From Escherichia phage PinkRuby: a stretch of 64,000 nt of DNA. Below are positions 19,958 to 20,971 of the stretch, in pieces (position 1 is the stretch's first letter; each line of letters opens with the position of its first letter). The position numbers and the translations under genes were made by a program. The stretch lies in sequence record PP925839.1; one strand, written 5' to 3'. The notes beneath the pieces are model-generated. The model made no database searches and was not told where the DNA came from. It worked only from the letters and a program-made list of their open reading frames with translations.

Positions 19958-20971
19958 TCATTTATAATAACTTCGGTGGTTTTCAAGATAGACCTTCTCA
20001 AGGAAGTCATCCCAGAAACCCATGTCTACTTTTTGCTGCATACCGTTCTTAGAAGCTTCAGTAGATGCTGCTTCTACTTGATCGACCACATCTTCCAAAA
20101 ACTCTTGAACCGTTTTAAATGGATGTTTACCCAACTTCACGTCGAGAATAAATGGAGCATCTTTGAGTGGATAAACCAAGTCACCAGTTTTGTAAATTTC
20201 CAATAGTTGGAGTCCACCACGGCAAGCATGACTCAGAGCTTTCCAGTCAATGCCCTCATTCGCTTCAGCCTTACGAGCACGTTCACCGTATTCGGCATCA
20301 AGTTTATTCAAAGACTGCTTAAGCTCAATAAGAGAAAGTGTTGTCTGATATTTACGACCCAACACAGTGTAGAACGTTTGTGGACCGGTTTTCTCATGAT
20401 TATGGAATACCCATTCACAGAATTCGTTTTCTGGAAGACGATGCTTAATATCTTCAACTTTAGTGCGACGCTGCTTAATGGAACCGTCTTCTTGGTAATC
20501 AACCCATTGCTCGGGGATTTGATTAACTACTTTCAATACATCACGTAATGCAGCCAAACGAGAACCCTTGACACCGTATTTAGAAGCTTGCTTGCGGACA
20601 TATCCTAAATATGATTTCATGTTAGTCGTATAAAAACGAGAACGGTTGTCTTGAATAAACTTCCACACATCAGGCAAATCAGATTTAACCACTAGTTCAG
20701 GTGGAGTGTGAAGCATATCTAATGCTACAGTTTCACCATCTGCTGCTAATTTAAAGAAATATTTAAGACTGTATAGTTCATGGTCAATATCATCTTTAGT
20801 GTTTTTAGATGATGTGTTGTTAGTATTTTTACTCATGTGCTCTTTAACATTTCCAATAAGAATATCGCGAGCAGGAGGAACAAAGATTTCTTTAAAATCT
20901 ACATCAGATTCTGGAGTAGAAGTTCCATAAAGATGACTACCAAAATAGCTTTTCATTACTGTTTTCATCAT
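19958..20971 (-). CDS. Pol-beta-superfamily nucleotidyltransferase-like protein
   Basis: 337 aa; N-terminal GSHLYGTSTPESDVDF matches the GS-x(9-11)-DhD nucleotidyltransferase signature, with downstream acidic DIDHE; C-terminal helical region. Confidence 0.7.
   Translation of the reverse strand: MMKTVMKSYFGSHLYGTSTPESDVDFKEIFVPPARDILIGNVKEHMSKNTNNTSSKNTKDDIDHELYSLKYFFKLAADGETVALDMLHTPPELVVKSDLPDVWKFIQDNRSRFYTTNMKSYLGYVRKQASKYGVKGSRLAALRDVLKVVNQIPEQWVDYQEDGSIKQRRTKVEDIKHRLPENEFCEWVFHNHEKTGPQTFYTVLGRKYQTTLSLIELKQSLNKLDAEYGERARKAEANEGIDWKALSHACRGGLQLLEIYKTGDLVYPLKDAPFILDVKLGKHPFKTVQEFLEDVVDQVEAASTEASKNGMQQKVDMGFWDDFLEKVYLENHRSYYK

Follow-up and report, generated by a model that had tools for sequence, protein, structure and literature searches.

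The nrdC.11 gene of Escherichia phage PinkRuby encodes a nucleotidyltransferase of a long RlaP subfamily with a possible role in RNA-end repair

The gene analyzed here lies on the minus strand of a 64,000-nucleotide stretch of DNA from Escherichia phage PinkRuby (PP925839.1), which is referred to in its entirety as the window. The window is Tequatrovirus DNA and the gene is nrdC.11 of phage T4. An earlier reading based on the letters of the sequence (the original prediction) had described an open reading frame (ORF) of 337 amino acids (aa), which is present as described, and had assigned it to the Pol-beta-type nucleotidyltransferases (NTases) without being able to place it among T4 functions. 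This placement can now be made. The window protein is identical to T4 NrdC.11 (NP_049709, T4p095) at 329 of 336 residues (98%), and the T4 protein carries the RefSeq name "nucleotidyltransferase" and is encoded at the corresponding place on the T4 map, with nrdC.10 on one side and the mobD block on the other. A protein with 100% identity to that of the window is encoded by phage vB_EcoM_C2-3, and at the DNA level nrdC.11 is 97.9% identical to several T4-like phages. The gene is thus already catalogued and its family already named: Carruthers, Fatma and Huang (bioRxiv, 30 December 2025, PMC12776372) include T4 NrdC.11 among the RlaPs, describing it as "of unknown function" and assigning it to sequence similarity network (SSN) cluster 5, the canonical RlaPs forming cluster 1a. 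A literature search under the other names of T4 NrdC.11 found nothing further. In many GenBank records, NrdC.11 orthologues are mislabelled "thioredoxin", a name that evidently stems from the nrdC prefix.

The coordinates of the gene and of the features around it are given in Table 1. The nrdC.11 start reads ATGATG and the stop codon is TGA (19958-19960). Initiation at the second ATG (20968) would yield a protein of 336 aa, and this is the likelier start because nearly all orthologues are 336 aa in length. The membrane-protein gene ahead of nrdC.11 ends in a stop codon that shares bases with the nrdC.11 start (ATGA). The terminator that the original prediction had attributed to the gene is real: the DNA following the stop codon reads AGGGAGCCTTCGGGCTCCCT and then T7 in the terminator scan, and the RNA hairpin (AGGGAGCC-UUCG-GGCUCCCU, then seven U) has a fold energy of -17.5 kcal/mol (z = -3.74 relative to shuffles). 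nrdC.11 is the last gene of its transcription unit. As judged from its sequence, the early-type promoter-like site probably drives the unit mobD.2 - mobD.1 - y05I paralogue - membrane protein - nrdC.11. The membrane-protein gene and the paralogue pair had also been noticed previously and are indeed present, but the NTase gene had been placed upstream of them, whereas on the minus strand they precede it transcriptionally.

Table 1. Positions in the window of nrdC.11, its encoded motifs and domains, and its neighbours
Feature	Position	Strand	Remarks
nrdC.11 orthologue, coding sequence	19958..20971	minus	337 aa from first ATG; ORF list
hG[GS]-x10-DxD nucleotidyltransferase motif, codons G11-D25	20897..20941	minus	GSHLYGTSTPESDVD
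Codon D63, putative third catalytic carboxylate, motif KNTxDDxDxE	20783..20785	minus	Invariant; on predicted strand E62-68
Beta-rich insert, residues ~153-210	20342..20515	minus	AlphaFold2 strands E155-159, 165-169, 185-192, 196-203, 206-209
C-terminal helical domain, residues ~214-336	19964..20332	minus	Invariant R231, W243, K244, H248, A249, R251, P268; near-invariant K279
Intrinsic terminator	19956..19937	minus	Directly 3' of nrdC.11 stop; 8-bp GC-rich stem, UUCG loop, U7 tail; terminator scan
Membrane-protein gene, 153 aa	20968..21429	minus	Transcriptionally upstream of nrdC.11; PHROG 944
y05I paralogue pair (both T4_y05I_N+C)	21432..21953 and 21960..22526	minus	Pfam
Early-type promoter-like site	22690..22662	minus	GTTTACA-17-TATAGT, TG-extended; promoter scan, 10/12 matches with TG

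Residues 11-26 of the window protein read GSHLYGTSTPESDVDF and comprise G11-S12, ten residues and D23-V-D25. The GS-x-DhD signature on which the original prediction was founded is therefore real and not a chance occurrence: the protein matches Pfam family PF10127 (RlaP) with 44.1 bits (E = 2.6e-11; cut-off 23) and, over its full length, PHROG 388 ("nucleotidyltransferase"; 9e-137). A search over 1.8 billion cluster representatives returned 3423 relatives, of which 827 reached E <= 1e-30, and the window protein was aligned with 34 relatives of 34-54% identity. In this 35-sequence alignment, the invariant residues are G11, S12, G16, S22, D23, D25, N57, D63, W103, Y124 and Y132 together with those of the C-terminal domain listed in Table 1, while D61 and K279 are among the near-invariant ones. 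The most variable and most gapped part of the alignment is the insert. An AlphaFold2 model built from the same alignment (predicted local distance difference test score, pLDDT, 92.9; predicted template modelling score, pTM, 0.78) consists of an N-terminal alpha/beta NTase domain, the beta-rich insert and five C-terminal helices. In this model, the fold of NrdC.11 is that of a Pol-beta nucleotidyltransferase with a helical C-terminal domain. With the triad D23, D25 and D63 invariant in diverse homologues and an NTase fold predicted, the assignment to the Pol-beta NTases is upheld.

Within this superfamily, the kinships with cGAS/OAS/CD-NTase enzymes, terminal uridylyltransferases (TUTases) and CCA-adding enzymes that had been drawn from the signature were not supported. 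Foldseek comparison with the PDB gave weak NTase matches alone, and the nearest solved folds are HalB, 3c18 (an uncharacterised NTase-like protein) and kanamycin nucleotidyltransferase, all of which are small Pol-beta NTases. Neither the single protein nor the 35-sequence profile retrieved a relative from the PDB in sequence searches, and no RlaP structure came up. Membership in the cGAS/OAS/CD-NTase group was not supported, as there was no PADLOC match, no such Pfam match at E <= 0.1 and no such enzyme among the fold matches. Membership in the CCA-adding/TUTase group was not supported either, given that there was no Pfam match (PolyA_pol, PAP_assoc) and that the sole fold match of this kind was Cid1 (E = 0.55, template modelling score 0.11). 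With CCA-adding enzymes, TUTases/poly(A) polymerases and cGAS/OAS/CD-NTases, the window protein has in common the superfamily-wide hG[GS]...DxD signature alone. A third candidate identity, the MNT (NTP_transf_2) component of MNT-HEPN modules, was likewise not supported when judged by a PF01909 match above cut-off together with a HEPN partner gene. NCBIfam and PADLOC gave no match for the NTase gene or its three neighbours.

The family to which the protein belongs is RlaP. It scores above the PF10127 gathering threshold and carries the G[GS]/DxD/third-Asp signature, and a precomputed PF10127 assignment is attached to every homologue listed. The match is limited to residues 7-135, corresponding to profile positions 23-142 of 249. 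When the NrdC.11-type protein (the long form) was compared with canonical short RlaP using hhalign, the two aligned with 95% probability over 83 columns, and D23, D25 and D63 were placed opposite D39, D41 and D72 of the canonical protein. The canonical RlaPs of Pseudomonas (PfRlaP, which has been crystallised, and PaRlaP) share with the window protein the Pol-beta NTase domain (GS...DxD...D), an overall layout of NTase domain plus helical C-terminal domain and, in the case of the cellular members of the long form, an association with RtcB, Pnkp/Hen1 and Ro60 operons. They are, however, ~250 aa in length, whereas the window protein is 337 aa in length and leaves the second half of the Pfam model unmatched. 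The T4 type is a distinct "long" RlaP subfamily with its own insert and C-terminal domain. Long-form proteins are found in 1517 phage records, mostly T4-like and spread across the T4-like genera. Among phages, the short form turned up in jumbo phages and further large ones, and its matches included no Tequatrovirus record.

The long form is also encoded in cellular genomes. In a survey with one genome per prokaryotic species, 80 long-form loci (33-54% identity) were kept, with sources including Desulfobacterales, Nitrospirota, Alphaproteobacteria and some archaea, and the neighbours at these loci were clustered and then checked against Pfam. RtcB, Ro60/TROVE, Pnkp or Hen1 was encoded within 4.5 kb of the long form at 14 of the 80 loci, and at ~20 of the 80 a full-length canonical short RlaP (5e-79) followed directly downstream on the same strand. 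For example, the gene order in Nitrosospira (locus L038) is Ro60-RtcB-x-long RlaP-short RlaP-Hen1, and that at locus L065 is Hen1-Pnkp-long-short. In the set of 149 nearest same-strand neighbours, no family but RlaP (19 members) was recurrent; next came RtcB, Ro60 and AAA_33 kinase (3 each), then PNKP_ligase and RTC (2 each); a few unrelated families were also present with 2-3 members each. The RNA-repair association therefore holds for the T4-type subfamily itself. Because the long and short forms so frequently occur in tandem, this arrangement suggests that the two do different jobs.

The loci at which the long gene is followed by the short gene are L007, L009, L021, L023, L024, L031, L038, L055-L057, L061, L065, L067-L069, L074, L077, L080 and L082. 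The short RlaPs of these tandems are ~235-290 aa in length, and several of the tandems are situated inside RtcB/Ro60 or Pnkp/Hen1 operons. The pair looks like a recurrent two-NTase module, of which no mention was found in the accessible literature. An apparent 601-aa fusion of long and short RlaP at L080 was rejected as an out-of-frame ORF extension in GC-rich DNA.

The activity of canonical RlaP has been studied with two Pseudomonas proteins encoded between rtcB and rtcA (PMC12776372). These enzymes add 1-2 nucleoside monophosphates (NMPs), or deoxyadenosine monophosphate (dAMP), to RNA 3'-OH ends with a preference for Mn2+, favour the 5' half of a nicked-tRNA mimic, and are inactive on 3'-P ends, DNA and protein. 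Treatment with RlaP before ligation partly restores aminoacylation to a tRNA from which one anticodon-loop nucleotide is missing, and 5'-P ligases such as Rnl1 and Rnl2 can use the RlaP product. The authors proposed that RlaP is an antidote to "smart" nucleotide-removing ribotoxins such as RloC (PMC12776372 for each of these statements), a nuclease that excises the wobble nucleotide and has itself been proposed to defeat the T4 repair enzymes (PMC2610378). Iyer et al. (2021) had predicted that RlaP restores such nucleotides in jumbo phages and had noted that its distribution mirrors that of RNA ligases (PMC7824862). Among the roles offered in the original prediction, the modification of tRNA or RNA ends is the one that fits, given that the family adds 1-2 NMPs to RNA 3'-OH ends in vitro (PMC12776372).

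Based on these results, we favour the interpretation, with a probability of roughly 55%, that NrdC.11 is an active RlaP-family NTase that would add nucleotides to the 3'-OH ends of broken RNA between the Pnk and Rnl1 steps of tRNA repair. The main substrate would be tRNA whose anticodon loop has been cleaved by anticodon nucleases of the host. PseT (polynucleotide kinase/3'-phosphatase) would first make a 3'-OH end, NrdC.11 would then transfer one or a few NMPs from nucleoside triphosphates to this end, and RNA ligase 1 (or 2) would afterwards seal the nick, so that tRNAs trimmed by an RloC-like nuclease could be rebuilt and not sealed one base short. PseT and RnlA are both encoded by T4, and the chemistry fits this phage, as RlaP needs a 3'-OH, which PseT supplies, and its own product ends in a 3'-OH that a 5'-P ligase can use. 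We infer that the T4-type enzyme would share the canonical RlaP chemistry, use tRNA as its substrate and cooperate with PseT/Rnl1 against nucleotide-excising nucleases.

Several observations weigh against this interpretation. In T4-like genomes, the gene stays in the tk-rI-mobD-nrdC region with no adjoining RNA-repair gene. The T4 pseT and rnlA genes are situated ~80 kb from nrdC.11, nothing similar to either was found within the window, and in 78 viral loci an RnlA homologue was found near the gene once (in the distant contig L149) and a PseT homologue not at all. From the alignments, homology to canonical RlaP is demonstrable for the N-terminal ~90 residues only: the comparison of the long and short C-terminal domain profiles was weak (E = 0.019, probability ~1%), and the ~60-residue beta insert had no counterpart in canonical RlaP by Pfam, hhalign or the C-terminal comparison. 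Since only these N-terminal residues align and the insert is extra, substrate specificity may differ from that of canonical RlaP. The weak C-terminal match is colinear and pairs K244, R251 and K279 with the invariant K149, R156 and K199 of the short form, which hints that the C-terminal halves of the two forms may share an origin. The usual position of the long form beside a short RlaP in cellular operons argues that the two are not redundant. Untemplated addition alone could not restore the right or modified wobble base. Under laboratory conditions, T4 is viable without nrdC.11-mobD.3, a result that fits an accessory role and is silent on which role this is (PMC9825161); such viability is as expected for a conditional counter-defence gene.

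If the enzyme is active, it might instead act on another acceptor, such as tRNA 3'-CCA ends, phage tRNA precursors, mRNA 3' ends, a small molecule or a protein, a possibility that we regard as doubtful but deserving of consideration. Both the beta insert and the C-terminal half are peculiar to the long subfamily, the long/short tandem at ~20 of the 80 cellular loci implies divided labour, and the phage carries an 11-gene tRNA cluster. The nearest solved folds also include kanamycin/aminoglycoside nucleotidyltransferases (KNTase/ANT), LinB, DrrA, GlnE and MNT. Aminoglycoside nucleotidyltransferases, DrrA/GlnE and MNT antitoxins nucleotidylate small molecules or proteins. Weighing on the other side, the cellular neighbours of the long form are RNA-repair enzymes and not antibiotic-resistance or toxin-antitoxin genes, and canonical RlaPs do not modify protein or DNA (PMC12776372). 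The similarity to ANT(4') (1kny, 6nlt), like that to HalB of the Hailong system (PDB 9dbh), amounts to 128-152 superposed residues at 8-15% identity, and nothing at the window locus points to aminoglycoside substrates.

A further idea is that NrdC.11 makes or caps an anti-defence nucleotide signal or decoy, either a HalB-like oligonucleotide that keeps a host effector silent or a product that interferes with cyclic-oligonucleotide signalling. This seems improbable to us. The gene does lie in a region that is rich in accessory genes and that deletion data suggest to be dispensable (PMC9825161), and it is translationally coupled to the gene for a small membrane protein; however, the similarity to HalB is confined to the common NTase core, neither a PADLOC model nor a Pfam model for CD-NTase/SMODS/OAS was matched, and the cellular context of the long form is RNA repair and not defence islands. 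At the window locus there is no HalA-like partner and nothing pointing to tyrosine-primed poly-dA synthesis. The membrane protein was considered for the part of HalA and rejected, being absent from T4 and from all cellular loci. Least probable of all, and by our estimate very unlikely, is that the protein is a non-catalytic NTase relic, either retained in a structural or regulatory capacity or carried along as dispensable cargo in the hyperplastic region. It is true that nrdC.11 can be deleted in T4 (PMC9825161) and that both of its flanks are indel-polymorphic. A relic would, however, hardly be expected to keep G11, S12, D23, D25 and D63, along with a dozen other residues, unchanged from phages through to archaea, to be kept in so many phage records across the T4-like genera and to yield a confidently folded model.

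RNA repair as a counter-defence has its founding example in the Pnk/Rnl1 pathway of T4. Should NrdC.11 put nucleotides back ahead of ligation, T4-like phages would already possess a counter-move to RloC-type nucleases, against which repair was thought to fail, and the textbook Pnk/Rnl1 pathway would gain a third enzyme. Such re-addition has already been predicted in print (Iyer et al. 2021; Carruthers et al. 2025), and no new gene comes from the window. The new element is the assignment of the phage enzyme to a separate long subfamily, with an insert and C-terminal domain of its own, that is paired with the canonical form in cellular repair operons; the results obtained with Pseudomonas RlaPs are therefore not transferable to the phage enzyme without a test. 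We tentatively suggest that, in bacteria, long RlaP could be a functionally distinct second RNA-repair NTase beside short RlaP (acting on another end, adding another nucleotide or forming a heteromer) and that, in T4-like phages, it could be the missing third enzyme of the Pnk-Rnl1 pathway, reversing RloC-type excision.

The window and T4 agree at this locus in strand, in the position of the gene between nrdC.10 and the mobD.1 block, and in the terminator region. The window protein differs from T4 NrdC.11 by seven substitutions and a possible extra N-terminal Met. In T4, mobD is immediately upstream of nrdC.11, whereas in PinkRuby the membrane-protein gene and a second y05I/MobD.1 paralogue (window 20980-21934) fill the slot of this HNH homing endonuclease gene. 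Because the phage allele is mobD-free, the nrdC.11 start region may be near the MobD target. The membrane-protein gene has no T4 counterpart and is syntenic in many T4-like genomes. Its product is probably not a functional partner of NrdC.11, because the gene is absent beside the cellular homologues. The mobD.x genes are labelled as encoding [quoted passage not shown] in the T4 and SHFML-11 RefSeq records, apparently through a confusion of gene names, and such annotation errors are spreading.

Between the nrdC.11 terminator and nrdC.10 lies a 275-bp cassette (window 19591-19865) that has no T4 counterpart. It contains a 66-codon ORF (19638..19838; PHROG 6200) with its own early-like promoter (19905..19877). 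A 12-bp inverted repeat, TTGATAGGACTACTATAACATAGTCCTATCAG (window 19597-19628), is located between this ORF and the nrdC.10 start and was flagged on the plus strand by the terminator scan. The NrdC.10 orthologue (window 18612-19580; 322 aa, 99% identical to T4) is encoded just downstream of the NTase. It shows sub-threshold Pfam matches to AAA/STAND NTPases (AAA_14, nSTAND3) and a weak match to a clamp-loader PHROG, and appears from these matches to be an uncharacterised P-loop ATPase.

The 11 tRNA genes counted in the original prediction were recovered as one minus-strand cluster (window 37435-38455) comprising Arg, His, Asn, Tyr, Met, Thr, Ser, Pro, Gly, Leu and Gln. T4 has eight tRNA genes. 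The PinkRuby set is thus expanded relative to that of T4, with His, Asn, Tyr and Met among its members, and this expansion may be relevant to the evasion of tRNA-targeting defences.
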